Positions 8,045 to 55,970 of a stretch of DNA of 64,000 nt are shown piece after piece (the stretch's first letter is position 1; each line of letters begins with the position of its first letter). The notes under the pieces are model-generated. The model saw nothing but the letters and a program-made list of their open reading frames with translations. It made no database searches and had not been told where the DNA came from. A program made the position numbers and the translations under genes. The stretch comes from Chitinivibrionales bacterium (GTDB taxonomy: Bacteria > Fibrobacterota > Chitinivibrionia > Chitinivibrionales > JANQEN01): positions 107,950 through 171,949 of the forward strand of contig JANQEN010000203.1 of NCBI GenBank assembly GCA_028278335.1. The letters run 5' to 3'.

Positions 8045-8052
8045 AGAGTGCT

Positions 8053-11564: not shown

Positions 11565-11569
11565 CACCA

Positions 11570-12451: not shown

Positions 12452-12460
12452 TGGGTAGTA

Positions 12461-12495
12461 AAAATAAAAAAAGGCAGTATTCACTGCCTTTTTTG
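12461..12495 (-). terminator. Rho-independent terminator downstream of the TPR gene
   Basis: Stem aaggcagt / actgcctt (12471-12478 / 12483-12490) with a 4-nt loop, flanked by an A-run and a T-run. Read on the minus strand it is followed by TTTTTATTTT. Confidence 0.6.
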
Positions 12496-12527
12496 TAAAC
12501 CGTATATGCGAAAATTATTAATTCTGC

Positions 12528-13634: not shown

Positions 13635-13857
13635 AATTCCCCCTCCTCATTAAGTGTGATGTCATTTACATTCTTAAAATAGTATATTCGTATGAGAATA
13701 CACCTGTTTTATTACACAATAATTCTTTCCTATAGAAATATAGAACCATATCACCACCATATTCAACAATTATTGTATTTTAATACTCTTTATTTTTTAC
13801 AAGAGAGATTCTCCGGTGGATAGTCTCTTTCTGTTTTTGAACAATAAGTGAGGTACT

Positions 13858-33941: not shown

Positions 33942-36900
33942 TTACTCATTTTTCTGTAGCTTTTGTCGATTTCTCATTATGTGTAACTCTTCCTGTATCT
34001 CCTTAATTTTCTTATCAAGGACATCATTCTTTATAAGCAATTTTTGGACATGCAAGCGTTCGTTTCTAATATCATTCTCCATAGCTTTAACAACTGATGT
34101 AAATTGGGTAATCGAATCAGTAACCATGGCCTCTGTTAACAATGGCTTCTTAGATGGAATAGAATCTCCTACTTGGACAGCTGTTTCCAGGGAAGTTGAA
34201 TCTATTGCACTTGAATCAACAGTTGTTTTTTGACTACTGCGAGCCGCTTTTGGCAAAGTCACCGCAGTGATAAAGCTTTGCGCAGTGTCAAGTAATGCAT
34301 AGAGTGCACAGGCGACCCCATGACGAGTTGAATGACTATCCACAATCTCTATGGCCAATGAATTATCGCCTCCAGTAAGAAGGGTTGCAATAGCAGAGAC
34401 ACTATCGATTCTCTTAGATTTACTCTTTTGTGTCGTATCGCTCAAGAGCAGTTTCTCATTCACGTATACCCTATACTTTCCTGTGCAGGCAATATAAAAG
34501 GAGGCTTCCCGTGGTACTCCATCTAAAAAGATATTAGTCCACATATAGAGTTTTGACGCATTGGGATCGCCCCAAATGACCATGGGCTTTCCAATAGTAA
34601 ATTCAGGAGATGTCCTTTTTGCCACAACCTGCACTGACTTCCACCCCGCGGTGTCAGGTTCCTGAGCATTCCAGGTAGGGATACTATCAGTACGATAAAT
34701 CCATTTATCATCGGATACTGAAACATGACCAAGATAGTAATCCTTGCCATAGGTTTCCGGGCTAAGTCTGGCCAGTCGCTCCATTATCGACTGATGCCAC
34801 TTGGTCTGAGTAAGTCCCTCTTTTTTGACAAGTTCCAGGGCATCCTCATACCCAAAAAGTGATTTGTCTTGTAGCTCAAAGGTCAAATCCTCAAATTGAA
34901 ATACATACTCCTCTCGTTCATCCTCATCCATATCTTCGGGTAAGTTTTCCGAAGCAATCAGAATCTCCTCGGCAAGTTTGTCAAAACCATTGGGAATAAG
35001 AAAATTAATTCTTCCAAAAAAGTTTAAACACTCCTCTTCTGTTTCGGGAAAAAGGGTAAGTTTTTTTAACTCCTTGGCAGAGGTAAGATAATAATCACGG
35101 GCAACCGTCATCAAAGGTTCTAAGGTCTCTAAAAGCTGCTTTTTATACTGTATTAAAAAGAGCGGTTGCTCCCTTATTTTATCCGGTATGGGTGCCTTTT
35201 TCATTATCGAGACAGCCTGTGTCATAAAGGTTCCAGCTTGTAAATAGTTATCCATAAGGTGGACCTTTGCAGAATCTATCCACTCTTGCTGTTCAGATGA
35301 TAAGGAGTCAAGCCCCTTTGCCAAGGTGATCACCTTTGTAAAGGGAGAAAAGGATTTCTTCATTAATTGTGCGCAGGTCAAATTGATGTCCCTTTGAGCA
35401 ACCGCAGCTTTAACCGGATCTAACCCTTTTAATCGCTGTTTTTCCCAGGAGAGGGCAAACTCTTCGTACATTTCACCAATTCTATAGGCCGCCTCAAACA
35501 TACGGGTACTTTTGTACTCTATGGTCCGCTTAAAAACCTTAACCGCTTGCAAAAGAAGTTCTGTTTTCTCCTTCTGGATGCTCTTTGCCTCCTCTGGTGT
35601 AACATTAAAACTTAAGGCAGAAAAGGCCTGTTGCTTCAACAGACCAGCCTTAAAAGCGGCCTCACCAGCGTAGTAATTATTTGCAGTACGTTTAGAGACT
35701 AACAACCGTTTATTGTGCGCTTCAGCTTGGTCAAAGCTCATCAGAGCATTAACTGTATCTTCCTCCTTTAAATAACAGACACCGATCTGAAAATAGGCTT
35801 CAACTGAATTTTCTGAGTTTGGATAGCGAGAGATATAGTTTTTATAGACCCGAATGGCCTTTTCGCAAAGCGAAGCTTTAGAATAGTAGTGTGCAGAGCG
35901 AAGAATCATCATCTCCACATCCTTTTCCCCTGGGTAAAGCTGTGTATACCGTTCATTAGCCTCGGCCATTTTTTCCGGCTTTCCCATCTTTTCATAGGAG
36001 AGACCCACATTAAAAAGAGCATCCTTGGCCTTATCCGAAGAGGGATAATTGGACACAATCAATTCGTACATACGAGCAGCTTCATCAAATTTTTTGATCT
36101 TCTCAAAATTTGTAGCAGCATTAAAGAGAGCGTCGGGAGCCAGTTTTGATTGTGGATATTTATCATACAGCTCATAGTACGTTTTACAAGCTTTTTTCCA
36201 GGCCTCAATCTTTTCAAAGGCCTCGGCACTATTAAAAAGTGTGATATCACCATACTCACTGCCAGGATACCTTCTGTCAATCTCTCGATATTCAAGCGCA
36301 GCTTCTTCATATGCCTTGGATGAAGCAAGTTGTTTAGCATAGAGAAAACGCGACTGAAGCAGCAGTTTAAAGGCTTCACTCTTTTGGAGCTCATCGGTCG
36401 CCTCCTTCCATACAACCTCAAATCCAGCGGAAGCCTTGGTCCAATTTTCCATGCCAAAATGACATTTTGCAATCAGCAGTCCTGCGTCTTGGTAACGCGG
36501 TGTTGTGGGTCCTCGCTTTCGAATATGTTCGTAGGCTTTAATGGCATTAGCAAACATCTTTCTATTATAATACACAGAACCCATGTTCAGCACTACATCA
36601 TCAAAGGACTCACCTTTAGGAAATAGGGTCAGGTAATTTTTCGCTGCTTCAATAACCTTAGTTGAAGCAACATCAAGCTTTTTAGTGAGGGTTGTTGAAT
36701 CTAGGGGCATCATCTTTTGTGCAATGGCAATAGCATTCAATGCGGCCTGTTCACATCGTTGAGATTCAACAGACTTAAGGGTACTAAACTGCATAAATTT
36801 TGCATAGGCAACCTTCTTCTTATACAACTTGGTATCAAGGATCACCGCCAAGTTCCAAAGCGCCTCTGCAGTGATTGGATGATCAGGATAGGCCTTTACT

Positions 36901-39764: not shown

Positions 39765-42700
39765 CTAAATCCCACATCCTCCGAAGAGATCATCATACTA
39801 CTGGTAAAGAAAAAGCCACAGCGCGCTTTCTCCCCATATTTATAAGAACCGCCAATGATTTTTGGCTTTCCATTCTTTGGATCTATAACCCACTCCCATA
39901 CATTACCAATCATGTCATGAGTACCATAGGGTTCTTTACACTCGCTAAAGTTTCCTGAGCGAAACATTTTATCACCCTCGGTTGGACAACGCTCTTTATC
40001 ATACTGGCTTCCATAGGGATATTGCTCGGCCTGATATTTCTTACGGTCTTTTAGACTCTTGCCGCTACAGGCATATTGCCATTCCTCAACAGAGCAGAGA
40101 TGCTTGCCTTGATCGTAACAGTACATTTTGGCCCGAACCCAAGAAACAGCAATCCGGGGAGTCTCCTTTATCTTATTGGGCCATTCATAGGTGTCAATAC
40201 AGAAGGAGCTGTCACCCATCCGTGGGACAAAAACCATATTCTGGGGACAAGCCCCATACACAGCCACCTCTTTTTCAAACTGAGATGACTGTTTTTTTGG
40301 ATCCAAGACAGTTAATCGCGCAATATATTTACCAGCTTTGTGAAATGAATGATGTACTGTTGGAGTTCCCTTTTTCTTTGCATCAACCTTCCCATCGCCA
40401 TTAAAATCCCAATGATATTCAAGACTAGAGAGAGGACTCTCTTGATCTAATGTTGCCGAGGCATCAAATTGAATCGATTGCCCCACAGAGCCACCCTTTG
40501 GCGATAGGGTAAACTGTGGTGACGGTGGCAAGTCTATGAAATAGACAAAGGTGTCAATTTCTCCCCGATAGCCCGATGCGTCAACAACAAAGGCCATGAT
40601 AGTATCCGATGTAAGTAGGGTAATCGGTGTTGTGTAAATGTTCGACTTGAGTGATGGTTTTTTACCATTATGTTCATAATAAATTTGTGACTTCTCATCG
40701 TAAGTGCTAAAGGAGAGTGACAATATGCGGTTGTATATCTTTTTTTTGCTAGATGGGATCGTTGGCACTGCCCGGGGCTTGAATACGTCAAGTACTGATA
40801 TAGCACCTTGATTACCGGCAGCATCCTCTGCATAGAAGGCCAATTTCGCTTCACCACTGCGCAAAATACTTATCCGATCACGGGACCGTGTAAATTTGTT
40901 ACCGGCAATCTGGGTGGTATTGCTAAAGAAAGGACTTGTACCGTCCAGTGTATAATAGATCGACGCATTTTCACTACACTCAAAAAAGATTGAAACCGAA
41001 TCACCGACACCTTTTTTTACCGAGATTGTTGCTCGCGGTGCAGTCCAGTCAATCAGATACTGCAATCGCCGCAGAGGACTCTTAAAGCCGGTTGGTGACA
41101 GCGAGTAATACTCAAGTACATGGAGCCCCTCTTCATTCAGGAGGATTGTATCATGATAGCGTAAAAAGGTACTATCCGAGGCAAATCGCCAATAGATCTC
41201 ACCGGCCATATTGGTTGTAAACATTACCGGTACTGCGGCATTATACACTCCGCCCTCGGGCTGTACAAGAACCATGGGCTTTTGCAGATCATCCATAGTG
41301 ACAATATCACTGGCATTTCCCGCTCTGTCTACAGCAAAATAGCGCAGCTCCTGGTTCATACGGAGGGTTATTTCCTTTGTAAACTGAGGAGAGGATCGAG
41401 TCGGTTCAAGCTCTCCCACTTCATAGTAGATTCGGGCCTCTTCATTGGAAACCAACAACACGCTAAATTCATTTTCCTTAGTTTTACTCCGCTCAATGAT
41501 CGCCTTAACCTTGGGAGGATCAATATCAACAAAAAATTCCAATATCTTTTCCTCACTTCGATTATCAGCCTCATCAATGGCAACATAGCGAATCGTGGTC
41601 ACACCAATTTTTGAAATTATAACACCCTTCCGATAGACGATTGCTCGCTCATCGGGTTTGGTACCATCCTGGGTATAGAGTATGGTCACCGGTTCCGATG
41701 CAGAAAAGGTCAGCTTAAATCGCCTGTTGTACGTTCCTGACAAATGCGAGGAGGATACCGTTGGTGGTGTTCGATCGTACTTGCGCTCCCACACAAGAAG
41801 AGGTGATCGATTTTTTGCCTTATCCTCGGCCACCGCCCTTATCAACGCTTTACCTTTGTGTGGCACAACAATGGGTTCAGAATAGGTGTTCCATTCCTCA
41901 ACTTTAGCACGACGATCAAAGGTGTATAGAATGGTCGCATTCTCTTTAGTAAACAATGTGAGTGTATCGGCCTTTATTCCCTCTCTATGATTGTACCGTA
42001 CCCGTGGTGGTACTGTATCAATGATATAGGTTGCTTGATTGATCACTGATTCACTATTGTAATCATTGCGCGCAAAAAATCTAACCAGCACTAAACCATG
42101 AGGACAGGGCACTGGTCTAATATAGGGAGTAAACATGCGTGTCGGCATGGAAGGGTCAAAGGAGTAGTAAACCTTGGCTTTTTGTGAAGGCTTAAGGGAG
42201 ATTTTGACTGGGTAGTTGTATATACCAGGTTTTGGCCGAATTGCAATCTTGATCGAGGTAGTATCTACCATGTAAAACAGGGAGTCACTTCTGGTTCTAT
42301 TACCAGCTCGATCAACCGCACTTATATACCCAACAAAGCGCTGTGTGATGATGGTTGAATCGGTTATCTTCACCCGCTCTTTACCCACAGGATCTCGATG
42401 TCGAAACAATCGACAGGGTTCATTTGTATTTATGCGTAACACTACCGGCTTTCGATAAACTCCAGAGGGTGGATCAATAGAAAGGGTGGGAGGCTGCAAA
42501 TCCAACACATAAGCAACGGAATCAATTTTGGAACGGTTTCCGTAGATATCTTCTCCATAGTAATAGAGTATGGTTTTCCCTGGGTTTGAAATATTAATTC
42601 CCTGTTTAAAGGCCTTCATAGATTTGGATGAGTTAATACCAACCCAAAGTTGAGCATTCTCATTTGCGCTAAAAGAGACGTAAAAAGGTTTGCTGTGGAA

Positions 42701-42826
42701 TCGTTTTTTTGGTGAAATTTCAATTTTGGGTGGTATAGTATCCAACCAGGAGGGGACTGTGTCTTTTTGTGCGAAAGCTGCTACAACACACAGTAGCAAA
42801 CCAAGGATAGGGTAAAGTTTTTTCAC
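39752..42826 (-). CDS. secreted multi-repeat protein: about 9 chitobiase/hexosaminidase-C-like (FN3/Ig-like) repeats plus a PKD domain plus a C-terminal FGE-sulfatase (SUMF1/DUF323) domain
   Basis: Signal peptide. Repeats carry the signature (A/V)xI(Y/L)YTxDGxxP...AxDxAGNxS (e.g. ASIYYTLDGTSP, VTILYTQDGTKP, VAIDEADNRS). PKD: HWDFNGDGKVD...GKYIARLTVLD. FGE-like: HDMIGNVWEWV...GGSYKYG...VGFRCCK. Confidence 0.65.
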   Translation of the reverse strand: MKKLYPILGLLLCVVAAFAQKDTVPSWLDTIPPKIEISPKKRFHSKPFYVSFSANENAQLWVGINSSKSMKAFKQGINISNPGKTILYYYGEDIYGNRSKIDSVAYVLDLQPPTLSIDPPSGVYRKPVVLRINTNEPCRLFRHRDPVGKERVKITDSTIITQRFVGYISAVDRAGNRTRSDSLFYMVDTTSIKIAIRPKPGIYNYPVKISLKPSQKAKVYYSFDPSMPTRMFTPYIRPVPCPHGLVLVRFFARNDYNSESVINQATYIIDTVPPRVRYNHREGIKADTLTLFTKENATILYTFDRRAKVEEWNTYSEPIVVPHKGKALIRAVAEDKAKNRSPLLVWERKYDRTPPTVSSSHLSGTYNRRFKLTFSASEPVTILYTQDGTKPDERAIVYRKGVIISKIGVTTIRYVAIDEADNRSEEKILEFFVDIDPPKVKAIIERSKTKENEFSVLLVSNEEARIYYEVGELEPTRSSPQFTKEITLRMNQELRYFAVDRAGNASDIVTMDDLQKPMVLVQPEGGVYNAAVPVMFTTNMAGEIYWRFASDSTFLRYHDTILLNEEGLHVLEYYSLSPTGFKSPLRRLQYLIDWTAPRATISVKKGVGDSVSIFFECSENASIYYTLDGTSPFFSNTTQIAGNKFTRSRDRISILRSGEAKLAFYAEDAAGNQGAISVLDVFKPRAVPTIPSSKKKIYNRILSLSFSTYDEKSQIYYEHNGKKPSLKSNIYTTPITLLTSDTIMAFVVDASGYRGEIDTFVYFIDLPPSPQFTLSPKGGSVGQSIQFDASATLDQESPLSSLEYHWDFNGDGKVDAKKKGTPTVHHSFHKAGKYIARLTVLDPKKQSSQFEKEVAVYGACPQNMVFVPRMGDSSFCIDTYEWPNKIKETPRIAVSWVRAKMYCYDQGKHLCSVEEWQYACSGKSLKDRKKYQAEQYPYGSQYDKERCPTEGDKMFRSGNFSECKEPYGTHDMIGNVWEWVIDPKNGKPKIIGGSYKYGEKARCGFFFTSSMMISSEDVGFRCCK

Positions 42827-44934
42827 TTGTTCGTTCCCTTGAGTAAAGAATTGATCAATTCTCGCACCTTTGAGTCTTTCGATTTTTGAAAAGCCTTTTG
42901 CAGATGCTCCACAGCCAATTCTCTGTATTGTTTATACTCTTTATAAATCCATCCCATATACAGATCTGGCTCAGGACTGAAGGGATCCATCTTTTGTGCA
43001 TTTTTTAGTACATAGATTGTTTTGTCATAATTCCTTCCACCCTTAAACCGAATAATATCGAACATACTCTTTCCCAAACCCAAATGCACATCAAAATCAT
43101 CTTTATAATCTTTGTCCTTCATGAGCGTCTGATACTGCTCAATGGCTACCTCATACCATCCCATTTTTCGGTAAATATCAGGGAGTTTTAATCGGTACTC
43201 ACGATCTTGGGGAAAGTCATTGAGGTAGCTGTCTACAATCTCCATGGCCTCCTTAAAGCGCTCATTTTTTTCAAATAACGAGATGAGTAAAGCCAACACC
43301 TCTCGGTTACCCGGTGATAACTCCAGTATTTTGCGATAATAGAGCATTGCCTTATCATCATTCTCTAAGAGGATCATCAGCTCAGCCTGTTTCTTAAGAA
43401 TCTCTATTCGATTGGGTGCTAAAAAGAGCACCTCATCCAAACAAGCTGCAGCCTCTTTCTCTTTTCCCAAGGCAAGATAGGCAAGAGCCATGTTGTAGAG
43501 AATCGTTTCGCTCTTTTTTCCCTGTTTGTCAGCCTTCTTATAAATTTTAATAGCCTTTTTGATATCCCCCGATAGAAAGAGGATATTACCCTGATTATTT
43601 AAAGCAGATTGTCCGATCAGTTGATCATCAGCAGCTTTTTCAAACATCCTCTTAGCCCTATCCCACTGTTTAGCGTACCAATAGAGCACTCCCAGGTTGA
43701 GATAAATCTCTCCTAATTGGGGATGTATCTTTTGCGCTTTTAGCAAAACCCTCTCTGCTTTCTTATACCAACCTAATTTGAAATAGGTATTAGAAAGACT
43801 AATGAGATGGGGAACATTGTTCGGTTCAAAGACAAGAGCATTCTCTAAAACCCGGCAGGATTCCATCAAATTTCCCGCCTCCCGATAGGCTTCTCCTAAA
43901 AAGGAATAGTATCGAATATAACGGGGACGATATTTAATGAGTCGCCGAAATATCTCCGCAGAGGTGGTAAATTGTCCCACCAGTAAATAGGCGCGTCCCA
44001 ACAAAAAATCGGTTTCCAAATTAGAGGGACCTGCAGCAACAGCACGCATTAAAACCGATACGGCTCGCTGGTACTGCCCAGCCTGTAAATAACCCAATCC
44101 AATAGAGCGCATCCCGGCAACACTCTTTTCTAAAATCTCCATTTTCGAATCAATAAAGGAGGTGGCTCGATTGGTACTCCCGGACTTAAGAAGCATCTCC
44201 GCTTGCTGTGCTGTGATCAAAGAGGAGTTAGTTGACTTTGACAGAGCACGATCAAGATAGTTCTGAGCCTCTTTGATGTTTCTCCCTCTATTGTAAAGCA
44301 TACCAATACGATAGAATACGGGTGCAAAATCCTCAGTCATTTCAATGACCCGTTTGTAGGCAGATATGGCACTGGTCAAATCGTCCTTCATTTCATAGCC
44401 ATACCCTGTTGCAAAGGTCGCATAGTGGCTAATGACACTTGGAAAAGAAATACGATCTCTACGCTTGCGTGTCTTTTTGGAAGAGAGCTTTATATGGGCC
44501 TTTACTTGATCTAACAACGCTATACACTGGTCATTATAAGAACGGTAGGTCCAACGGGCTCTTTTCTTTTTAACAATCATCTTATTGGACTGCTTATGTA
44601 TCAACTTTAAGGTCAGATAGACACTATCATCATTGGCCTTATAGAAACCACCTATTGCATAATCCCATCCCCATCGCTCTTGATGTATCAGAAGTAAACT
44701 ATCGTTGCTGAGTCGCCACCCAGAGGAATCTACAGAAAAGACAAAAACCGGGTCCCACACCTGTACATCGGTCCTCTCGGAAAGAGACCGAAAGAACATC
44801 TCCGGAATCGAATATCCCACCCAGTCAACCAGGGGATCATTGGTTTTATTTTCCAAAGGGAAAATAACCAGACTCACCTTAGCATACATATTTACAGAGA
44901 CAAGTAATAACAGGATACAGATAAGCTTTTTCAT
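42823..44934 (-). CDS. secreted TPR-repeat protein with a TolB-N/LpoB-like N-terminal domain
   Basis: Signal peptide MKKLICILLLLVSVNMYA, then an N-terminal VSLVIFPLENKTNDP... module and about 12 TPR repeats. Its stop overlaps the start of the next gene (42823-42826). Confidence 0.7.
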   Translation of the reverse strand: MKKLICILLLLVSVNMYAKVSLVIFPLENKTNDPLVDWVGYSIPEMFFRSLSERTDVQVWDPVFVFSVDSSGWRLSNDSLLLIHQERWGWDYAIGGFYKANDDSVYLTLKLIHKQSNKMIVKKKRARWTYRSYNDQCIALLDQVKAHIKLSSKKTRKRRDRISFPSVISHYATFATGYGYEMKDDLTSAISAYKRVIEMTEDFAPVFYRIGMLYNRGRNIKEAQNYLDRALSKSTNSSLITAQQAEMLLKSGSTNRATSFIDSKMEILEKSVAGMRSIGLGYLQAGQYQRAVSVLMRAVAAGPSNLETDFLLGRAYLLVGQFTTSAEIFRRLIKYRPRYIRYYSFLGEAYREAGNLMESCRVLENALVFEPNNVPHLISLSNTYFKLGWYKKAERVLLKAQKIHPQLGEIYLNLGVLYWYAKQWDRAKRMFEKAADDQLIGQSALNNQGNILFLSGDIKKAIKIYKKADKQGKKSETILYNMALAYLALGKEKEAAACLDEVLFLAPNRIEILKKQAELMILLENDDKAMLYYRKILELSPGNREVLALLISLFEKNERFKEAMEIVDSYLNDFPQDREYRLKLPDIYRKMGWYEVAIEQYQTLMKDKDYKDDFDVHLGLGKSMFDIIRFKGGRNYDKTIYVLKNAQKMDPFSPEPDLYMGWIYKEYKQYRELAVEHLQKAFQKSKDSKVRELINSLLKGTNK

Positions 44935-49729: not shown

Positions 49730-50269
49730 CTATTTAACAAAACTATAAAGAAATTGATCCAACAGGTTCCCATCTTTAAACACATTAGATTTCATAATAC
49801 CTTCCAATGTATACCCTGCTTTTTCAAGAACTTTTTTTGATGCTAAATTTGTACAGTATGGCTCAGCAAACACGCGATTCATCTTTAAATCGTTTATGGC
49901 ATACTCGGTAATACTTTTCACTGCCTTTGTCATTATACCTCTTCCCCAAAAGGGCTCAGCAAGCCAATATCCCAATTCTGCAGAATATCGATGGACATCG
50001 TTGCCAAATGTAAATCCTATACAGCCAATTGCTTCAGATCTATTTGCAATAGCAAAGACTGTTATTGGGTCAGAATTTAACGCATTAGATATAAATGTTT
50101 GTGCATCCTCTAAACTATAGGGACTGGGAAAACCGTCACGCAAATATTGCCATATTTTCCTATTATTTGCGTATTTCGATACTGATTTTGCATCCTTAAT
50201 CGTCCAATTACGAATGGCATATTCTCCAATTTCTCTATGCATATGGTTCAAACTCCTTAATTGACTCAA
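49730..50269 (-). CDS. GNAT-family N-acetyltransferase (RimJ/RimL-like)
   Basis: Acetyl-CoA-binding region FWGRGIMTKAVKSITEYA and the NxxSxxVLEKAGY motif. Confidence 0.8.
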   Translation of the reverse strand: MSQLRSLNHMHREIGEYAIRNWTIKDAKSVSKYANNRKIWQYLRDGFPSPYSLEDAQTFISNALNSDPITVFAIANRSEAIGCIGFTFGNDVHRYSAELGYWLAEPFWGRGIMTKAVKSITEYAINDLKMNRVFAEPYCTNLASKKVLEKAGYTLEGIMKSNVFKDGNLLDQFLYSFVK

Positions 50270-50731
50270 TTTTAATTTTGCATATTCAACCTATTTAGTT
50301 TTCTTAATAAACATAATTCTCTAAGTCTAAATAATAGGTATAGTTTTTATAAAAAAAACCTATTCCAACAAATTTCAACGATTTTAATTTAGTTTTAAAG
50401 AAAATTTTATAGTATATTAAAATTATAAACAAAGTTGTAACTATCATCAAAAAAAGGAATTAGCTGAAAATTCATGTATTAAAGATATGATCGGTCGATT
50501 ATACTTGAAGTGCAAAGAACTAAATTTAAACTATTATGTTACCAATTCTTTCTTGTTGTACCTCTCCTTCACCCCTACATAATTTTCCCATTCTTTCTTT
50601 ACTTTTCATACAAAATTCCTTTTTAAAACCTCTGTTTAATAATCAATCAAATACAAAGATTGTATCTGCCCTCTTTGCTCATTTGTCTTTGAATTTTGGA
50701 TACTTTAATAAATTTCTTAAAGGAGTTATGT

Positions 50732-52399
50732 ATGCAATCAAAACTTTTACACTTTTTCCAGAAAAATCATTCATCAAATCACTCCTGTTTTAATGATACA
50801 TCACAACCACTTCCCAGATTACATCTTCCTGTGGCATTGAAATGTAACATAAAATGTAAATACTGTGAAAGGGTGATTTCAAATTCTAATGAGATATGTC
50901 CTGGTCATACTAAAGAGGTCATAACTCCTGATGCTGCATTCCAAAAAGCCAAAGATTTCATAGACAAATATGGAGAAGATGTAATCATTGGCATTGCAGG
51001 GCCTGGTGATCCTTGCGAGAATAAAGAGACATTTACCACATTTCAAAAGATTAGAGATACGTTTAAACAGGTAAAATTATGCCTCTGTACAAATGGATTA
51101 AAGCTGATTGAATACATACCGCTATTAAAAAATCTCTCAATCAATCATCTCTCAATTACCCTAAATACACTTAATCCTGAGACGGCAAAGAGAATATATG
51201 CACGTATAAATATTGATGAGAATGAACAAAGTAAAGGTAATCCATTTGACTATTTCATTCAACAGCAAATCGCTGGAATTGAAGAGGCTGTTAAACAAAA
51301 TATCGTTGTGAAAGTAAACACCGTTTATATACCTGGTATAAATAATAATGAAATTATTGATCTATCAAAATATCTTTCAAAAATACCAGTATCAGTGCAT
51401 AACATTATACCCTTAGTCCCAAAGGGTGAATTTAAGCATATTAAAAGACCTGATAATGATGAATTAAATACCCTTAGAAAAAAGTGCAATCAATATATAA
51501 ATACCTTCTCTAAATGCAAGCAATGTCGTGCAGATTGTATTGACATACCGGAAAAAAAGGTATCCGTTGACAGACGGTTTTGGTTAAAGGCTTCCGGCTT
51601 TGCTCTTGCTAGTGGTCTATTGTCTCATGCAACACCTAATACTGGTGCATCATTTAATGGTAAGTCTTTAGCAGTCTGGTCCTGTGGTGGATTGGCAGAG
51701 GCCTTTATACCAGCAAATAAAGAATATGAGGAGATGACTGGATGCAAAATAAATTACACTGGAGCCTTCGCAGCAGCATTGGGTAAATCACTTTTAGGAA
51801 ATGCAGAAACTGAAGTTTTTGCACCCCGGGTTTTAGAGCTTGCGAAAAAACTTAAAAAAGCAGAGAAGATGGTCTCCTATTCTCCGTTGTGTTTTACCCA
51901 ATATCTTATTGTTGTTCCTGTAGATAATCCTGCCAATATAAAAGGTATCCATGATTTGAAGAGAGAAGGGGTACGAGTTCTGCTTTCAGTAAACGCTTCT
52001 CCACCAGGGGGAAAAGCTGTTCTTGGTATTTTAAAAAAGGCTGGAATAATTAAAATGGTATTGAAAAATACAGTCTTTAAAGGTGATTGTGTACAAACTG
52101 ATATTCCACTGTTAATAAAAGGAAAAGCTGATGTGGCTATTGTTGAAAAAAGAGTGACAATGCTTCCTCAATTTAAGGACAAATTAAAAACCATATCAAT
52201 TCCGGAAAAAATAATTCCTGCTATGCCTATACCATTTACCATAGGTATGATGAAATATGCACAAAATAGGGAAATGGCAAACCACTATATAGAATTTATC
52301 TGTTCTGAAAAAGGGCAGCAGCACTTTCATAATGCCGGTTTTATTACAGCTATGAGTAATGAAGGTAAACGATTAATCTCTAAATATGGAGTTGCATAA
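50732..52399 (+). CDS. fusion protein: NifB-like radical SAM domain plus internal twin-arginine-like hydrophobic segment plus ModA/TupA-like (type II periplasmic binding protein) domain
   Basis: RLHLPVALKCNIKCKYCER...IGIAGPGDPCEN...LCLCTNGL...HLSITLNTLNPETAKRIYARI...CKQCRADCIDI matches the NifB SAM-domain blocks. It is followed by DRRFWLKASGFALASGLLSHA, then an SBP-like KSLAVWSCGGLAEAFIPANKEYEEMTGCKINYTGAFAAALGKSLLGNAETEVFAP. I place the start at 50732 (SD AAGGAG 7 nt upstream); the ORF is open from 50696. Confidence 0.7.
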   Translation: MQSKLLHFFQKNHSSNHSCFNDTSQPLPRLHLPVALKCNIKCKYCERVISNSNEICPGHTKEVITPDAAFQKAKDFIDKYGEDVIIGIAGPGDPCENKETFTTFQKIRDTFKQVKLCLCTNGLKLIEYIPLLKNLSINHLSITLNTLNPETAKRIYARINIDENEQSKGNPFDYFIQQQIAGIEEAVKQNIVVKVNTVYIPGINNNEIIDLSKYLSKIPVSVHNIIPLVPKGEFKHIKRPDNDELNTLRKKCNQYINTFSKCKQCRADCIDIPEKKVSVDRRFWLKASGFALASGLLSHATPNTGASFNGKSLAVWSCGGLAEAFIPANKEYEEMTGCKINYTGAFAAALGKSLLGNAETEVFAPRVLELAKKLKKAEKMVSYSPLCFTQYLIVVPVDNPANIKGIHDLKREGVRVLLSVNASPPGGKAVLGILKKAGIIKMVLKNTVFKGDCVQTDIPLLIKGKADVAIVEKRVTMLPQFKDKLKTISIPEKIIPAMPIPFTIGMMKYAQNREMANHYIEFICSEKGQQHFHNAGFITAMSNEGKRLISKYGVA

Positions 52400-53145
52400 T
52401 GACTAAGGCACTAGTAAAAATTAGATATACGATCCAAGCAATCTCATTTATATTTCTGGCCAATTTCGCACTATATGGATTGTTCCGGTGTCCCTTTGCA
52501 GTACCCTTTGTCGGGTGTGGTAATTGTCCGGTGTTACAATGTCCTGGAAGAAAATATTATCTTCCTCTTTGGATAGCTTTTTTTATGTCATCCATAGTTT
52601 TATTCAGATCATTTTGCGGTTGGATTTGTCCTGTTGGTACATTCTCTACAGTTTTGAATAAGATAGCCTCAAAATTGAATTTGATTAAAATTACTATTTC
52701 AAAAAAATCAGGTACCATACTGCAATATCTTAGTTACCTGTTTTTGGCTGCTGCAGTGCTATTAGTTTTTGTTTATAGTAATCCACGCTGGGCGATACCA
52801 ATTAGAACAGGAGAATTATTTAACTCAATTAAACTAACCTTCGCACATGCCAATAACCCATGGATCATAAGGACTCTTGTAATAGCAGCTCTTATTGGAA
52901 TTGGGCTCTTTAGCAAAAAAATTTGGTGTCGATTTATATGTCCCGCAGGACTTATTTCAAAATTGATTGGTACGTTGTCAATATTTAAGATTAAAAAGGA
53001 TGCACAATGTCAGGGAACGTGTAATCAGTGCGATAAATACTGTGATATGGATGCGATGCATGACAATGGGAATTGTATTTCCTGTGCAACATGTTTTGCG
53101 AAATGTCCTCAGAATAAGGTTACTTTTTCAAAAATTAAGTTTTAA
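52399..53145 (+). CDS. NapH/MauN-like integral-membrane polyferredoxin (4Fe-4S binding protein)
   Basis: TM helices carry the CxxxCP motifs FCGWICPVG and WCRFICPAG. The C-terminus has CQGTCNQCDKYC and CISCATCFAKCP. Its ATG overlaps the upstream stop (ataATGa at 52397-52402). Confidence 0.7.
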   Translation: MTKALVKIRYTIQAISFIFLANFALYGLFRCPFAVPFVGCGNCPVLQCPGRKYYLPLWIAFFMSSIVLFRSFCGWICPVGTFSTVLNKIASKLNLIKITISKKSGTILQYLSYLFLAAAVLLVFVYSNPRWAIPIRTGELFNSIKLTFAHANNPWIIRTLVIAALIGIGLFSKKIWCRFICPAGLISKLIGTLSIFKIKKDAQCQGTCNQCDKYCDMDAMHDNGNCISCATCFAKCPQNKVTFSKIKF

Positions 53146-53444
53146 TTTCATTTTGTGAAAGGTGAGGATTCGTAAAGGAAGGACTGATTCGAGGAACTGT
53201 TGAAACAGCTACGGGATTTACAGGTTGGTATTACATGTCAATTTAAAAAACAATCATCACAAGAATTGATAATTTTTTCTTACCTGATTGCTTGTTGACA
53301 ACGTAACCTTAAAAATTCCAATATGAGTTGTATCTTTATTGGTAAATCTTGGTCACAGACCAAGGCCAAACAATTTTTCTTCGATACAACATGTTCAACA
53401 TATGTATTCGAAGAATCATAATTTAAACCATAAAAAACTTTAAT

Positions 53445-55970
53445 TTATTTTAAAATCATCATTTTTTTACTGGATGTCACTTTGCCATCCAAGCATAATC
53501 TATATATAAACATTCCGTTTGTCAGCTTCTTTGCATTGAATCTTGCCTGGTAAAATCCTTTGCTTTGTTTTTTATTTAATATGCTTTGAACTTCAGTTCC
53601 AGTGATATCAAAAACCGAAAGTTTAACATGACCATCATTTTCAAGTAAATATTCTATTGTGGTTCTCCCATTGAAGGGGTTTGGGTAATTTTGGAATAAG
53701 AAAATTGAAGTAGGTAGGTTTCTACTTGTATATAAACCCATAGAATCTTGCCACCTAAAATATGGATATCCATTGTTTTTCCTAGAATCAATATCCCAAA
53801 TATTTTTAAAATCCCAATCAACTGTACCATAAGTAGAAAGAGACTTCATTTCATTTGTAGTTTTTCCTATACCTTCAGCACTAACAGATTGTCCTGATGC
53901 TTCAATATCCCAAAAACAAGAAATTACCCGACCATTTTCTGAACTTCCTACTAGTCCACCAGCAACATTAGTTAAACCTTGAACTTTAGCATAACTATAG
54001 GAATTTATAACCGGTACCATGGCATCATTATCCCCAACGTGACCCGCTAATCCTCCAATTGAGTTAGTCCCAGACACTTTACCTTTGCTGTAACAATTCC
54101 TTATGTCGGTCTTTGCATGACCACAAAGGCCACCGATCCAGTCCCAGCCCGAAATCTCAACATCACTAAAACATTCTTCGATTTCACCTTTGTTGTACCC
54201 GCAAATACCACCAACAGAAAAAAGTCCTGTAACAGTTCCGGTCACAAAACATTTCTTAACTGATGATGAATTACGAGCAACTAGACCTGCTACATCTATC
54301 CCTCCAGTAACATCTACATTTATGAGCCCTAAATTCTTTATCTCTTGTCCAGTCGCCCCAAACAAAGCAACCAAATTGCCATTTGGACGATTAATATATA
54401 GATTATTTATTGTATGAAATTGACCATCATAGTTGGCAATTCTAATAGGTTCATCTCCCCATCCATAATATCCACCTGAGCCATTTGAAAACATTGTTCG
54501 AGTAATAGATGCATCTATATGCTTTGTTTGAACATAATAATAATCCCACCTCTGTTTTAACAAACTTAACCAGTACAGGTTTTCAAATGAAGCGATCTTG
54601 TAAGGATTCTCTTTTGTACCAGATCCCTCTGGCTGAACAGCATTAATTTCTAAAGTCTTAAAACTTATCTCCTTACTGTATTGAGTACCTTTTGAGTTTG
54701 TCACATAACCTCTTATGTGATATTCCGTAGAAGGCATTAACCCAGTGATTTTTATACTGAATACCCCGGTATCAATAGCTGATCCCAGCTTAATAACATC
54801 ATCTTCAATAGTGGGAAACCTTGTCGTGTCCCAGCAGAATCCATATTGTAAGATGTCATAATCTCCAACGCAAACGATATCAGACTGGCAGGACACACTA
54901 TTTAATCCTATGTCGAGGATCTCAATATTATCAAGAACTAGACCATGAAATAATGTTTGCCAGGATAGATAAGGATATCCTTCATTTTTTCCCTCCTCAA
55001 TTTTCCAGATATCCCCTTGTTCATTATAATTTGTGACTTCAAAATTCCATCCTGCATCAGTATATGTGCTAACAGTTTTCATTTCTGAAGTTGACAAGCC
55101 TAATCCGCCATTGCTAAAAGTCTGTTTAGATGTTTCTATATTCCAAAAACTCTTAATCACATTTCCAGGTATACTACTATAACCTATCAGGCCTCCAATT
55201 CTATTTGCCCCATGTCCAGTCCTGAGACCTACCAAGCCAACTGAATAACAATTTTCTACGATTGACCCATTTGTAAGCCATCCCAATAATCCACCGACCT
55301 CTGTAGCTCCCGTCACAATACATAAATTATAACAGTTTCTTATATTTGTATTTTCTGAATACCCAGCAACACCACCTAATAAACGGATCGTATAGACGTA
55401 TTGTTTACCGATTACTTTTCCCGCGGAATAGCTGGATATTATTTTGCTGTTCGATGTTTTTCCAACAATCCCACCTGTATGGGATTCCCCATAAATGATA
55501 CCGTGGCACCAACATTGATCTATTATAGAGTTGTTGCACACTCCTGATAGCATCCCAATAAATTCTAATCCTTCAATGTAAGTATTATTTAATCCCAATT
55601 TCTGAACAGTTGCATTTTCGATTATACCAAACAAACCCAATTGTTTTTGAGAGGAACGATTGATATACAATTCATCAATCATGTAATTCTGTCCATTATA
55701 TGACCCTGTAAAATGAATCGATGTATCACCTATTGGCAGCCACCCATGGCCATCAAACCAGTCATATGTTTCTGATGCATTTATATCAGCAATTTGAATA
55801 AACTCTTTATCCCAGTTAGCTGTATCTGTTGCAATCCAGTAAAGATTTTGCAGATTTGCAATCTGATATGGATTCTCACTTGAACCAGTACCAAATTCAG
55901 GAGCAATTGCCTTTTGTGGATAACCCTTTGTACATAAAAGAAAAAATAAATAAAACAATAATCTCTTCAT
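53445..55970 (-). CDS. T9SS-sorted secreted protein with two blocks of GLUG-motif repeats and an FN3-like domain
   Basis: Signal peptide. Repeated GGLxG motifs (TGGIVGK, LGGVAGY, VGGLLGW, IGGLIGY, VGGICGY, IGGLCGH, IGGLAGH, AGGLVGS). C-terminal type-A CTD: FQNYPNPFNGRTTIEY...GMFIYRL. Confidence 0.7.
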   Translation of the reverse strand: MKRLLFYLFFLLCTKGYPQKAIAPEFGTGSSENPYQIANLQNLYWIATDTANWDKEFIQIADINASETYDWFDGHGWLPIGDTSIHFTGSYNGQNYMIDELYINRSSQKQLGLFGIIENATVQKLGLNNTYIEGLEFIGMLSGVCNNSIIDQCWCHGIIYGESHTGGIVGKTSNSKIISSYSAGKVIGKQYVYTIRLLGGVAGYSENTNIRNCYNLCIVTGATEVGGLLGWLTNGSIVENCYSVGLVGLRTGHGANRIGGLIGYSSIPGNVIKSFWNIETSKQTFSNGGLGLSTSEMKTVSTYTDAGWNFEVTNYNEQGDIWKIEEGKNEGYPYLSWQTLFHGLVLDNIEILDIGLNSVSCQSDIVCVGDYDILQYGFCWDTTRFPTIEDDVIKLGSAIDTGVFSIKITGLMPSTEYHIRGYVTNSKGTQYSKEISFKTLEINAVQPEGSGTKENPYKIASFENLYWLSLLKQRWDYYYVQTKHIDASITRTMFSNGSGGYYGWGDEPIRIANYDGQFHTINNLYINRPNGNLVALFGATGQEIKNLGLINVDVTGGIDVAGLVARNSSSVKKCFVTGTVTGLFSVGGICGYNKGEIEECFSDVEISGWDWIGGLCGHAKTDIRNCYSKGKVSGTNSIGGLAGHVGDNDAMVPVINSYSYAKVQGLTNVAGGLVGSSENGRVISCFWDIEASGQSVSAEGIGKTTNEMKSLSTYGTVDWDFKNIWDIDSRKNNGYPYFRWQDSMGLYTSRNLPTSIFLFQNYPNPFNGRTTIEYLLENDGHVKLSVFDITGTEVQSILNKKQSKGFYQARFNAKKLTNGMFIYRLCLDGKVTSSKKMMILK

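Follow-up and report, generated by a model that had tools for sequence, protein, structure and literature searches.

The locus considered here raises the question of what purpose is served by a NifB-like radical SAM domain that is joined, in one polypeptide, to an internal twin-arginine (Tat) signal and a periplasmic domain of the ModA fold, and that is followed by a gene for a NapH-like membrane polyferredoxin (Table 1). The whole stretch of DNA that was analysed, 64 kb in length, is referred to below as the window. A preliminary description of the locus had called it an undescribed two-gene module and had proposed that it couples the sensing or uptake of periplasmic molybdate or tungstate to metallocofactor chemistry.

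Table 1. Features of the fusion gene and of the gene that follows it (nucleotide positions in the window; residues are those of the respective protein).
Feature	Positions	Strand	Basis
Fusion gene, 555 aa + stop: NifB-like radical SAM / internal Tat signal / Cys-lined ModA-fold domain	50732..52399	+	ORF, Pfam, AF2, Foldseek
NifB-family radical SAM domain, residues 1-273	50732..51550	+	TIGR01290, PDB matches, Foldseek, motif table
Radical SAM motif C38-x3-C42-x2-C45	50843-50866	+	motif table
Predicted internal twin-arginine signal peptide DRRFWLKASGFALASGLLSHA, residues 280-300	51569..51631	+	conservation, comparison with free homologues
ModA-fold (SBP_bac_11) periplasmic domain, residues 305-555	51644..52396	+	Pfam, Foldseek, conserved columns
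Cleft C318	51683-51685	+	invariant
Cleft C387	51890-51892	+	nearly invariant
Cleft C453	52088-52090	+	invariant
NapH-like 4-TM polyferredoxin, 248 aa, putatively coupled by TAATG overlap	52399..53145	+	Pfam, NCBIfam, motifs, topology
Periplasmic 4-Cys loop, residues 31-48	52489-52542	+	motif; CPFxVPYVxCxxCPxxxC
CGWICP	52615-52632	+	CxxxCP motif
Periplasmic invariant loop NPRWAIPIRTG..LTFxH, residues 128-150		+	conservation
CRFICP	52927-52944	+	CxxxCP motif
Cytoplasmic 8-Cys two-cluster ferredoxin tail, C204...C236	53008-53109	+	motif

The fusion gene is one uninterrupted open frame that runs from the ATG at 50732 to the TAA at 52397-52399, with a TTG at 50696 as a possible alternative start, and its product is identical to a protein in public assemblies (P0001). 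The three domain assignments made earlier are all matched by Pfam, which finds Radical_SAM at residues 36-214 (1.7e-15), SBP_bac_11 at residues 313-537 (2e-42) and Fer4_5 twice in the downstream product (1.8e-12). An AF2 model of the fusion protein contains two confident domains separated by a disordered linker (residues 274-304, pLDDT <50). The twin-arginine codons (AGA CGG) lie exactly where they had been placed, at 51572-51577, and the 16 in-frame codons that precede them include no ATG, GTG or TTG, in agreement with the earlier remark that no start is present just before this motif. The next gene does overlap the stop codon as described, by 1 nt in TAATG rather than in the ATGA first given, and this overlap probably couples its translation to that of the fusion gene.

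A sequencing or assembly error that deleted the stop codon between two ordinary neighbouring genes could produce such a frame. Split versions in the same gene order do exist (L008, L009, L010 and L013), and all copies of the exact window protein may derive from one data set. There is nevertheless very little chance that the fusion is an artefact of this kind. The preliminary description had suggested a search of related genomes for the same fusion, and PF04055 and PF13531 indeed occur together in 33 protein clusters at 90% identity; these were obtained from independent samples, two complete Phycisphaerales chromosomes among them, are 39-52% identical to each other, and have the linker between the halves conserved in frame. 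The joint in the window, CRADCIDIPE-KKVSVD-RRFWLK, has its counterpart in two separate genes of the closest relative (L010), where the first gene ends ...CRADAAGIPGLEE* and is followed by a 26 nt spacer and then MKKSDRRNFLK. Compared with this arrangement, the window joint has lost the stop, the spacer and the start cleanly and in frame, with no frameshift. The gene fusion is real, and the match to the split relative indicates that loss of these elements between adjacent genes placed the radical SAM gene, as it appears, before the intact Tat signal of the binding-protein gene.

The N-terminal half had been described as a close match to the SAM domain of NifB, a description that holds for family and fold. 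The top NCBIfam match is the NifB model TIGR01290 (2e-66, 224.4 bits, below the cutoff of 343.65), and the MoaA model scores only 65 bits. Sequence searches of the PDB return NifB structures 6y1x, 7bi7 and 7jmb at 1e-54 to 1e-58, and Foldseek matches the AF2 domain to NifB 7bi7, 7jmb, 6y1x and 7jma with E values of 1e-20 to 1e-26 (target TM 0.85-0.92, rmsd 2.0-2.8 Å, identity 32-36%). As a calibration, TIGR01290 gives 354.3 bits for a short NifB linked to nif genes, 345.8 for the module enzyme of Campylobacter concisus, 335.8 for that of Veillonella, 312.6 for Methanobrevibacter and 275.9 for L010.

The closeness of the motif match, on the other hand, calls for some qualification. Six fingerprint motifs characterize NifB: HPC, Cx3Cx2C, ExRP, AGPG, TxTxN and Cx2CRxDAxG (Arragain et al., 2017; PMC5715403). 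Only two of the six are complete in the window protein, Cx3Cx2C (as CNIKCKYC) and AGPG, and the other four are altered, with HSC for HPC, EICP for ExRP, SITLN for TxTxN and CRADCID for CRxDAxG (within CKQCRADCID). All six are present in the clade II module enzymes of Veillonella and C. concisus. The window domain carries HSC19, His31, AGPG, LC117LC119TNG and C252-x9-C262-x2-C265-RAD. In NifB, the K1 cluster is held by Cys30, Cys63 and Cys129 and the K2 cluster by Cys264, Cys274 and Cys277 (PMC6053413). The window protein keeps the radical SAM triad, C19 (Cys30), C117 (Cys129), the K2 ligands (C252, C262 and C265) and the equivalent of His43; Asn51 occupies the position of Cys63, for which C56 or the clade-invariant C119, the extra cysteine in LCLCTNG, could possibly substitute.

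Nitrogenase genes had been reported as absent nearby, and a NifH motif was indeed found neither within the 64-kb window nor in the 51 module loci scanned, whereas the same scan detected it at 11 non-module NifB loci. Many hosts of the module are anaerobes that do not fix nitrogen, Veillonella and C. concisus among them. Moreover, bacterial NifB carries a NifX domain where the window protein has its Tat signal and ModA-fold domain.

Conservation bears out the earlier reading of the mid-protein segment as a true Tat signal. The window reads D-R-R-F-W-L-K-ASGFALASGLL against a family consensus of N-R-R-x-F-L-K, and R281, R282, K286, A287 and G289 are almost invariant among fusions. An RR motif is present in every binding-protein homologue, fused or free, and is N-terminal in all free-standing ones, so that the internal segment very probably functions as these do. 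The earlier reading of the linker as a dedicated transmembrane helix fares less well. Fused and free signals are alike in RR-to-W distance (34.5 versus 34.3 aa) and in modest hydrophobicity (KD 1.59 versus 1.54); since the linker equals the cleavable signals of free homologues, the C-terminal domain may be released after export. The radical SAM domain would stay in the cytoplasm, either tethered by an uncleaved signal or set free by cleavage. That the whole family uses Tat and not Sec suggests export of the periplasmic protein in a folded state, perhaps with a cofactor already bound, which would fit a redox enzyme better than a simple binding protein. Internal Tat signals also occur in actinobacterial Rieske proteins, which are inserted by dual Sec/Tat action. 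There, too, an RR signal acts mid-polypeptide while the N-terminal part remains cytoplasmic, but it follows transmembrane helices rather than a 280-aa soluble Fe-S enzyme domain. The radical SAM maturases anSME and QhpD act on exported proteins and resemble the module in the genetic link between a radical SAM enzyme and a partner that is exported.

The exported domain scores 145.9 bits on SBP_bac_11 (PF13531; gathering threshold 25) and superimposes on ModA 4kd5 with TM 0.82-0.87 (Foldseek, AF2 model). It thus shares the type II periplasmic-binding-protein fold of ModA, TupA and WtpA, as well as of sulfate-binding proteins. The ModA model TIGR01256, however, gives only 45.4 bits (cutoff 62.5). 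The oxyanion ligands of E. coli ModA, Ser12, Ser39 and Tyr170 (structure 1wod), align to Gly320, Ala347 and Glu472, C318 aligns to ModA A10, and C453 is inserted at D151/V152. In place of the Ser/Ser/Tyr set, the cleft has acquired Cys318, Cys453, Lys352, Arg366, Glu472 and Arg474, and these columns are invariant in an alignment that includes members of only 33-35% identity. Identification of this domain as a molybdate or tungstate binder is therefore unsupported. A Foldseek match (PDB 3axf) is a ModA with an engineered inter-lobe disulfide (A11C/R153C). A search for selenocysteine (TGA) in place of the conserved cysteines returned no such variant. The clade is small and tight: a set of 1.8 billion proteins yields 18 representatives at E<=1e-30. 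ModA, TupA and WtpA have ABC permease and ATPase partners; the module domain is Tat-exported and is partnered by the NapH-like protein.

This partner contains the two CxxxCP motifs and two [4Fe-4S] motifs that had been noted, the latter forming the 8-Cys tail, and has transmembrane segments at residues 11-29, 55-73, 107-125 and 154-172. As its Fe-S tail must lie in the cytoplasm, the NPRWAIPIR and 4-Cys loops should be on the periplasmic side and the two CxxxCP motifs at the cytoplasmic face. The 4-Cys loop, a feature absent from the preliminary description, occurs in every NapH-like partner of the module. NapH/NapG, NosR/NosH, MauN and CcoG share with the protein four transmembrane segments, two CxxxCP motifs and a C-terminal two-[4Fe-4S] domain, and in Nap and Nos a membrane polyferredoxin is likewise paired with a Tat-exported periplasmic protein. 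The module protein differs from them in its two invariant loops, in scores far below the cutoffs (61 bits against 213 for NapH TIGR02163; 64 bits for the C-terminal half of NosR) and in a partner of binding-protein fold instead of a ferredoxin or reductase. Its subfamily is coherent, comprising about 110 clusters at 38-50% identity, beyond which identity falls sharply to <=30%. No solved structure matched the model of the protein, and no napAB, napG or mau genes were found among the module neighbours.

Pairing with the NapH-like gene is conserved across lineages. In all we found 131 loci, which belong to 55 lineages and differ in gene order, with cultured carriers that include Veillonella parvula, V. 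denticariosi, C. concisus and Desulforhabdus. When the count is confined to loci flanked on each side by 1.3 kb of sequence or more, the order radical SAM, binding protein, NapH was seen in nine lineages, binding protein, NapH, radical SAM in nine, binding protein and NapH in eight, and the fusion followed by NapH in four. In most lineages the radical SAM enzyme has a gene of its own, and in at least eight this gene is absent in cis, so that its tie to the other two is not obligatory; the core of the module is the Tat-exported binding protein together with the NapH-like protein. Neither NCBIfam release 20 nor the literature searched yielded a description of the module. The earlier view of an undescribed system therefore stands, although the module has three parts and not two. 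On these comparisons it appears to be a previously undescribed, conserved, envelope-spanning module of anaerobes that is, in all probability, neither a nitrogenase nor a molybdate system.

The neighbouring genes provide information about its possible function. Among 34 lineages with enough flanking sequence, genes for selenium or sulphur trafficking adjoin the module in ten and double-cubane [8Fe-9S] reductases or their activase in nine, with one or the other in 15; roughly half have no informative neighbour. Recurrent families are YedE (506 bits on TIGR04112, cutoff 200), YedF (194 bits on TIGR03527), SelD (366 bits), SelB (369 bits), LysR_Se (328 bits on NF040786), Se_S_carrier (PF11823), an SclA-like protein (TIGR01977) and an AlgE-type outer-membrane channel. 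One locus (L122) is a single same-strand cluster of DCCP, activase, porin, binding protein, (NapH), radical SAM, YedE, TusA, SclA, YedF, Se_S_carrier and SelD. In the closest relative (L010) the order is YedE, TusA, SclA, Se_S_carrier, radical SAM, binding protein, NapH and then SelB, and three fusion loci (L003, L089 and L088) adjoin YedE/TusA/SclA/Se_S_carrier or YedF. The module thus has neighbourhoods in common with the YedE/YedF/DUF3343/SclA candidate selenium-trafficking genes. No selenium genes are present in the 64 kb of the window itself.

Double-cubane proteins are nearly confined to SelD-positive genomes, according to a preprint (10.1101/2022.07.06.499078). The SAO system of Haft and Gwadz resembles the module in having a binding protein with cysteines clustered in the cleft, in its occurrence in anaerobes and in its frequent location beside double-cubane reductases and activase. 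It differs in that SaoB and SaoX belong to other binding-protein classes and work with an ABC transporter, and in its selenocysteine, MerB-like lyase and efflux pump, all three of which the module lacks. In the passages retrieved by term search from PMC5322559 and from this preprint, the three families of the module are not named.

We therefore favour, with a probability of roughly 45%, a new system for the acquisition and processing of selenium, inferring what its ligand is, which way electrons and selenium flow and what chemistry the radical SAM domain performs. An anionic selenium species, for which selenite is the best guess, would enter the periplasm, in many lineages through the adjacent AlgE-type channel. 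There the basic residues and inter-lobe cysteines of the cleft would capture it, perhaps in the form of an S-Se-S adduct. The NapH-like protein would carry electrons from its cytoplasmic Fe-S tail through the cysteine motifs to the periplasmic face, where selenium would be reduced or handed over. Reduced selenium might then reach the cytoplasm via YedE/YedF or the NapH-like protein itself and pass to Se/S carriers, the SclA-like protein and SelD. The weakest step is the role given to the NifB-like enzyme, which would put the chalcogen into Fe-S cluster chemistry, a use for which true NifB is the precedent: its 'ninth sulphur' comes from sulfite, and selenite is accepted in vitro (PMC10701300). 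Several observations count against the selenium proposal: proteins of the YedE, TusA and rhodanese types also work in sulphur metabolism, the window has no selenium gene of its own, about half of the well-flanked lineages show no informative neighbour, Tat is used, selenocysteine variants were not found, and the radical SAM gene is missing from the lineages noted above.

A different and rather unlikely arrangement is that the NifB-like enzyme builds an 8Fe K/L-type cluster and loads it into the ModA-fold cleft in the cytoplasm, yielding a Tat-exported periplasmic redox enzyme wired by the NapH-like protein as NapG is to NapH, whose substrate could still be a selenium or sulphur species. The universal use of Tat, the route of folded cofactor-bearing proteins, is what such an enzyme would require, and NapH-type proteins usually partner Tat-exported Fe-S proteins. 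The inter-domain cleft offers three conserved cysteines, a glutamate and basic residues, the ligands of the K1, K2 and radical SAM clusters are largely kept, and the ModA-fold domain sits exactly where bacterial NifB has its NifX carrier domain. Yet the pair without a nearby radical SAM gene in at least eight lineages is difficult to reconcile with cluster loading, a cleft of ModA size is small for an 8Fe cluster, and the selenium and double-cubane neighbours are not explained by this model alone. We also know of no precedent for a periplasmic cluster derived from NifB. Somewhat less probable again is the capture and reduction of sulfite, thiosulfate or polysulfide, with persulfide or sulfide passing to TusA/rhodanese/YeeE-type carriers and Fe-S assembly. 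The TusA, rhodanese, cysteine-desulfurase-family and Sulf_transp neighbours have sulphur-handling relatives, sulfite is the physiological ninth-sulphur donor of NifB (PMC10701300), and the fold is common to sulfate-binding proteins; but the equivalog models for YedE, YedF and LysR_Se, which are specific to selenium, give these neighbours scores far in excess of the cutoff, and SelD and SelB lie inside the same clusters.

The coupling to molybdate or tungstate first proposed, in which the C-terminal domain would sense or import the oxyanion, possibly for an AOR-like enzyme encoded in the window, now seems improbable. In its favour, ModA is the closest fold, the gene after the pair in L003 and L004 is of the TOBE (molbindin) type, L001 has a molybdopterin oxidoreductase and a MobA-like gene in its vicinity, and FdhA-like neighbours occur in three lineages. 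Formate dehydrogenases are often selenoproteins, however, and the FdhA-like neighbours therefore fit selenium equally well. The ModA ligand residues are replaced, and ModB and ModC were found neither in the window nor in the set of genes that recur beside the module across the 55 lineages, a set from which TupBC and Moco-biosynthesis genes are also absent; the ECF/CbiO-type ATPases near the module in seven lineages are not ModC. There is no Moco riboswitch, and the AOR-like gene, which lies at a distance of 24 kb, is not conserved beside the module. Should the selenium proposal be correct, a bacterial enzyme of the NifB family would have a role outside nitrogenase, to whose maturation all current evidence confines bacterial NifB (preprint 10.1101/2023.10.20.563283).

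The radical SAM and binding-protein domains lie in a single open frame of 555 codons, and the preliminary description of the locus proved right overall in its anatomy. In the fusion protein Pfam places Radical_SAM at residues 36-214 (1.7e-15) and SBP_bac_11 at residues 313-537 (2e-42), and the NapH-like protein carries two copies of Fer4_5. For the N-terminal half, the NifB model TIGR01290 is the best radical SAM family in NCBIfam (2e-66; MoaA scores 65 bits), and the only strong matches in a PDB sequence search are the three solved NifB proteins (1e-54 to 1e-58). An AlphaFold2 model built on a 68-sequence alignment has two domains with pLDDT >90 and a disordered linker (residues 274-304); in Foldseek, domain 1 superposes on NifB (TM 0.85-0.92, rmsd 2.0-2.8 Å) and domain 2 on ModA (TM 0.82-0.87). 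The proposed NifB-like and ModA-like identities are thus confirmed far beyond chance. Each part resembles a known family, yet the window proteins fall below the curated cutoffs of all three (224 versus 343.65 bits for TIGR01290, 45 versus 62.5 for ModA and 61 versus 213 for NapH), and an NCBIfam search with the three parts returned no model at or above its cutoff.

Loss of a stop codon by error, which would make the fusion an artefact, is essentially excluded. The search for the same fusion in relatives found both domains in one protein in 33 database clusters (90% identity), which are 39-52% identical to the window protein. The clusters derive from independent samples, with two complete Phycisphaerales chromosomes among the sources; when 16 of them are aligned, the linker is in frame and N-R-R-x-F-L-K-A-x-G is nearly invariant. 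In the closest relative overall, a Bacteroidales MAG (locus L010, 58% identity), the two domains are encoded by separate genes in the same order. The first gene ends in ...CKQCRADAAGIPGLEE and a stop codon, 26 nt follow, and the second begins MKKSDRRNFLK; removal of stop, spacer and start leaves the sequence of the window joint, ...CKQCRADCIDIPE KKVSVD RRFWLK. In the Phycisphaerales fusions an in-frame Met remains two residues ahead of the RR pair, and from it the second half might be made alone as well. None of the 16 in-frame codons preceding RR in the window gene is ATG, GTG or TTG, as the preliminary description had held, and a separate second half cannot be made from it. The next gene does overlap the stop codon, by 1 nt in GCA TAATG ACT and not as the ATGA first reported.

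The module genes have 35% G+C and the whole window 39.6%, a mild hint of horizontal acquisition that would fit the patchy spread over five phyla. A weak hairpin with a T-run coincides exactly with the RR codons of the fusion joint; its frequency in a scan of 50200-53500 is that of chance, and it may be a relic of a former intergenic region, or nothing. Promoter and terminator matches in the same scan were also at chance level, and Rfam gave nothing in 50150-50850 and only one tRNA across the window. NCBI and UniRef list one fused homologue (protein P0031) as belonging to the ostracod Cyprideis torosa, almost certainly through bacterial contamination of a eukaryotic assembly.

A twin-arginine signal is present in every member of the binding-protein clade, so that the Tat signal noticed in the middle of the window protein, nearly invariant among the fusions, is upheld. 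The single transmembrane helix once proposed between the domains is not: the linker is a signal peptide, with the same distance from RR to a conserved Trp as in free binding proteins (34.5 residues fused versus 34.3 free) and a comparable top 12-residue hydrophobicity (KD 1.59 versus 1.54), under the threshold for a transmembrane helix. On the simplest reading, the linker would insert as a loop-type Tat signal, with the C-terminal domain exported folded and the radical SAM domain held in the cytoplasm; signal peptidase may then cut, here at SHA/T, and free the periplasmic domain. A complete Tat signal behind a 280-residue cytoplasmic Fe-S enzyme domain is unusual. The known internal Tat signals, in actinobacterial Rieske proteins, follow transmembrane helices, whereas that of the window protein follows a soluble enzyme domain. 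At one fusion locus only, tat genes stand directly after the NapH-like gene, an arrangement that fits Tat-dependent export.

Coordinates of features in the window and in related loci
Locus	Coordinates (strand)	Feature
Window	50732-52399 (+)	fusion ORF, ATG 50732, TAA 52397-52399
Window	50696 (+)	TTG, alternative start of fusion ORF
Window	51572-51577 (+)	RR codons, AGA CGG, as first described
Window	51564-51587 (+)	weak hairpin and T-run, CCGTTGACAGACGG TTTTGGTT
Window	52399-53145 (+)	NapH-like gene
Window	24831-26828 (-)	AOR-like gene
Window	26828-29509 (-)	893-aa ORF abutting AOR-like gene
Window	33942-44934 (-)	run of very large ORFs (1940 aa, 1024 aa, 703-aa TPR protein)
Window	53445-55970 (-)	type IX secretion cargo protein (Glug/Por_Secre_tail)
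Window	9837-11564 (+)	type IX secretion cargo protein (LTD+CHU_C)
Window	16843-18993 (-)	anaerobic ribonucleotide reductase NrdD
L002, fusion locus	12515-14368	tatA, tatA, tatC
L005, Desulfatiglandales MAG	7624-9530	Tat-signal flavocytochrome c (TIGR01813, 460 bits) and small multihaem cytochrome
L006, module locus	1547-2932	P0059, joined SBP and NapH-like parts
L033, Campylobacter concisus	11632-12504	NifB-like enzyme, 345.8 bits
L046, Veillonella parvula	11546-12376	NifB-like enzyme, 335.8 bits
L122, module locus	10237-11181	SelD ORF, begins at model position 34

Across 170 loci, gathered from species-representative genomes, metagenomes and exact-protein look-ups, genes were called with a simple script and compared with the three window domains by BLASTP. 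A binding-protein homologue of at least 40% identity is present in 131 loci, and at 80% identity these group into 55 lineages. Where a locus extends 1.3 kb or more to each side of the module, the radical SAM gene precedes the binding-protein and NapH-like genes in nine lineages and follows them in nine; the latter two stand without it in eight, and a fusion precedes the NapH-like gene in four. In a few further cases the NapH-like gene was missed by the gene caller. These counts make the binding protein and the NapH-like protein the invariant core and the NifB-like enzyme a frequent third member, and the pairing with the NapH-like gene is conserved. Cultured hosts include Veillonella parvula, V. 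denticariosi, V. fallax, Campylobacter concisus, Desulforhabdus, Desulfatiferula and Ca. Electrothrix. The protein P0059 was considered as a natural fusion of the two core proteins and rejected; its binding-protein part ends about 85 residues early, joined straight to the NapH-like N-terminus, and it is probably a deletion or misassembly.

A neighbour-joining tree, crude and used for this grouping only, unites all enzymes encoded ahead of the binding protein, fusions and window protein included (clade I), and mixes those encoded after the NapH-like protein (clade II) with nif-linked NifB. In clade II enzymes, such as those of Veillonella and C. concisus, all six published NifB fingerprint motifs (PMC5715403) are present, and their TIGR01290 scores of 336-346 bits do not set them apart from a nif-linked NifB control at 354 bits. 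The C. concisus enzyme lies above the NifB equivalog cutoff and that of V. parvula just under it; automated annotation will therefore name the former NifB, although nitrogen fixation is not known in that organism. Clade I enzymes are without the ExRP motif and the 'YDC' Cys, which as Cys63 of M. acetivorans NifB is a K1-cluster ligand (PMC6053413), and have gained an invariant second Cys in LCLCTNG. They retain the radical SAM triad, counterparts of Cys30, His43 and Cys129, and the C-x9-C-x2-C K2 triad; the most divergent is the window protein. None of the 51 module loci scanned has a NifH gene, which is present in 11 ordinary NifB loci of the same scan. A search of the 170 loci for selenocysteine TGA codons replacing conserved Cys gave noise only, plus one decayed NifB-like C-terminus upstream of the binding-protein gene (loci L121 and L123) with TGA where the Cys262 equivalent is expected.

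The binding proteins form a small, tight clade, with 18 representatives at E<=1e-30 among 1.8 billion clustered proteins; beyond it lie generic ModA-like proteins at 24-31% identity. Even at 33-35% identity Cys318, Gly319, Gly320, Lys352, Arg366, Cys453, Glu472 and Arg474 (numbered as in the window protein) are invariant, and Cys387 nearly so. At the positions of the ModA oxyanion ligands Ser12, Ser39 and Tyr170 these proteins have Gly320, Ala347 and Glu472, Cys318 falls two residues ahead of Ser12, and Cys453 forms an insertion at Asp151/Val152, in a mapping that rests on hhalign against E. coli ModA for the N-terminal 55 residues and on a phmmer alignment to 4kd5 for the rest. Cys318 and Cys453 occupy opposite lobes, within one or two residues of the engineered A11C/R153C pair of E. 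coli ModA (PDB 3axf), and may be able to approach each other across the cleft.

About 110 clusters, 38-50% identical, make up the NapH-like subfamily; beyond them identity falls sharply to <=30%. A Foldseek search of PDB with the model of the NapH-like protein gave no match. Four hydrophobic helices are predicted, in agreement with the AlphaFold2 secondary structure. Since the eight-Cys ferredoxin tail must lie in the cytoplasm, the N-terminus is inside too, and two invariant loops are turned towards the periplasm: C-P-F-x-V-P-Y-V-x-C-x-x-C-P-x-x-x-C (residues 31-48) and N-P-R-W-A-I-P-I-R-T-G...L-T-F-x-H (residues 128-150). The two CxxxCP motifs lie on the cytoplasmic face. Conservation within the protein is highest on the periplasmic face, as would be expected of a docking surface for the exported partner. 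Flavocytochrome c and small multihaem cytochrome genes flank the module in L005 and, downstream, in four loci of uncultured Campylobacter (L032, L037, L041, L042), and could provide an alternative periplasmic electron route.

To examine genomic context, the six genes on each side of every module were clustered and recurrent clusters were named with NCBIfam and Pfam. Recurrent neighbours are the putative selenium transporter YedE (TIGR04112, 506 bits, cutoff 200), YedF (TIGR03527, 194 bits, cutoff 110), TusA-like YedF N-domains, a Se/S carrier (DUF3343, PF11823), an SclA-like class V aminotransferase (TIGR01977, 475 bits), SelD (TIGR00476, 366 bits), SelB (TIGR00475, 369 bits), the selenium-metabolism LysR (NF040786, 328 bits, cutoff 250), rhodanese, a double-cubane-cluster reductase (NF040772, 469 bits, cutoff 350) and its ATP-dependent activase (TIGR00241), and an AlgE-type outer-membrane channel (PF13372). 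In the 34 lineages with at least eight of 12 neighbour slots available, Se/S-trafficking genes adjoin the module in 10, a double-cubane reductase or activase in nine, either of these in 15, and the channel in seven. With about 2,500 genes per genome, a single-copy gene would by rough expectation fall within six genes of the module in ~0.5% of lineages, and YedE, found in five of 55, is by this rough estimate some twenty-fold over expectation. At locus L122 a double-cubane reductase, activase, channel, binding protein, frameshifted NapH-like protein, NifB-like enzyme, YedE, TusA, SclA-like protein, YedF, Se/S carrier and SelD are encoded on one strand; the late start of the SelD ORF there probably reflects a selenocysteine TGA ahead of it. 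The relative L010 has YedE, TusA, SclA-like, Se/S carrier, NifB-like, binding-protein, NapH-like and SelB genes, and in L157 two double-cubane reductases bracket the module, followed by rhodanese, TusA and a formate-dehydrogenase-like gene. YedE-TusA-SclA-carrier genes or YedF adjoin four fusion-type loci (L003, L004, L088, L089).

The context of the window module is itself uninformative, with an acetyltransferase gene upstream and a type IX secretion cargo gene downstream, and the 64 kb hold no selenium, double-cubane or channel/porin genes. From the secretion cargo and NrdD, the host is probably an anaerobe of the FCB group (Bacteroidota and relatives). What had been called a tungsten-type AOR does have AFOR_C, in an unusual architecture: a 2Fe-2S domain (Fer2_4) stands at the N-terminus, two 4Fe-4S motifs are present, and AFOR_N has no match. 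The gene is separated from the module by 24 kb and is not conserved beside it.

In general, these contexts point to selenium, and we put at about 0.45 the probability that the module serves selenium acquisition and processing. Drawn from the data are the cellular compartment of each part, the cleft re-tooled with Cys, Lys and Arg, the Cys loop on the periplasmic side of the membrane partner, and the gene neighbourhood; the chemical steps are drawn by analogy. Selenite and thiol pairs form S-Se-S adducts, and selenite would react in this way with the thiol pairs of the binding protein. Proteins of the NapH/NosR/CcoG type supply periplasmic partners or metal ions with electrons that travel across or along the membrane, and the NapH-like protein may likewise pass electrons toward its periplasmic partner. 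The NifB-like enzyme would then take up the chalcogen as NifB does. In nitrogenase biosynthesis two [4Fe-4S] clusters are fused by NifB, which draws a ninth chalcogen from sulfite; in vitro it also accepts selenite and tellurite (Tanifuji et al. 2018, 2021, as reviewed in PMC10701300). A sulfur version of the module is doubtful and fits the neighbour data less well, as does the role in molybdenum or tungsten put forward in the preliminary description, which is probably wrong and which we regard as the least likely of the functional readings. The main rival to the selenium reading is export of a cofactor, in which the NifB-like enzyme loads a cluster into the binding protein in the cytoplasm and the NapH-like protein serves the exported periplasmic redox protein. 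It is unlikely, but somewhat less so than the sulfur version; it takes the universal Tat signal at face value, and the binding protein sits where bacterial NifB has its NifX carrier domain. It and the selenium reading are not mutually exclusive.

The neighbouring double-cubane reductases allow a more speculative extension, which we consider improbable: the binding protein, NapH-like protein and YedE would import selenite-derived selenium, with which the NifB-family enzyme would join two cubanes into a Se-bridged 8Fe cluster for those reductases. If true, this would be a new biological use of selenium, in an inorganic Se-containing metallocluster; it would give bacterial NifB its first function outside nitrogenase, and would explain the near-perfect co-occurrence of double-cubane proteins with SelD. 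An obligatory role for the NifB-like enzyme in maturing ordinary double-cubane proteins was set aside, since such proteins, as reported by Jeoung and Dobbek in 2018, acquire their S-bridged cluster in E. coli without NifB.

The module is real and not ordinary, and the combination of NifB-like, ModA-like and NapH-like parts is not a described system. The preliminary description did not recognise the two-gene module either; no NCBIfam model reaches its cutoff on any of the three parts, and a description was not found in the literature on NifB, YedE, selenium, NapH, radical SAM, SBP or Veillonella/C. concisus. In the comparative-genomics paper that defined YedE, YedF, DUF3343 and LysR_Se, the terms radical, ferredoxin and 4Fe-4S are absent (PMC5322559). 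According to a 2024 study in which Methanococcus was starved of selenium, no transporter specific for selenium is known; the study also found a 'molybdate-binding protein' induced together with YedE (PMC11097638). Conceptually, the nearest relative is SAO, the selenium-linked system of Haft and Gwadz, which has Cys/Sec-lined binding proteins in anaerobes, often adjacent to double-cubane reductases, but whose proteins belong to different families. Their text describes a striking co-occurrence of SelD with double-cubane proteins and names a selenium-bridged 8Fe cluster as a 'formal possibility' (10.1101/2022.07.06.499078).

A preprint shows that NifB is essential in methanogens for a reason other than nitrogenase, and states that the evidence on bacterial NifB is so far confined to nitrogenase maturation (10.1101/2023.10.20.563283). 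Here, non-diazotrophs carry NifB-family enzymes, some indistinguishable by HMM from true NifB, partnered with two envelope proteins, and the module is a candidate bacterial counter-example to the use of NifB for nitrogenase only. It is likewise a candidate front end of bacterial selenium acquisition. One gene set makes three questions testable, namely the function of NifB outside nitrogenase, the acquisition of selenium and the tracking of double-cubane proteins with SelD, and it exists in culturable and partly genetically tractable bacteria, V. parvula and C. concisus.
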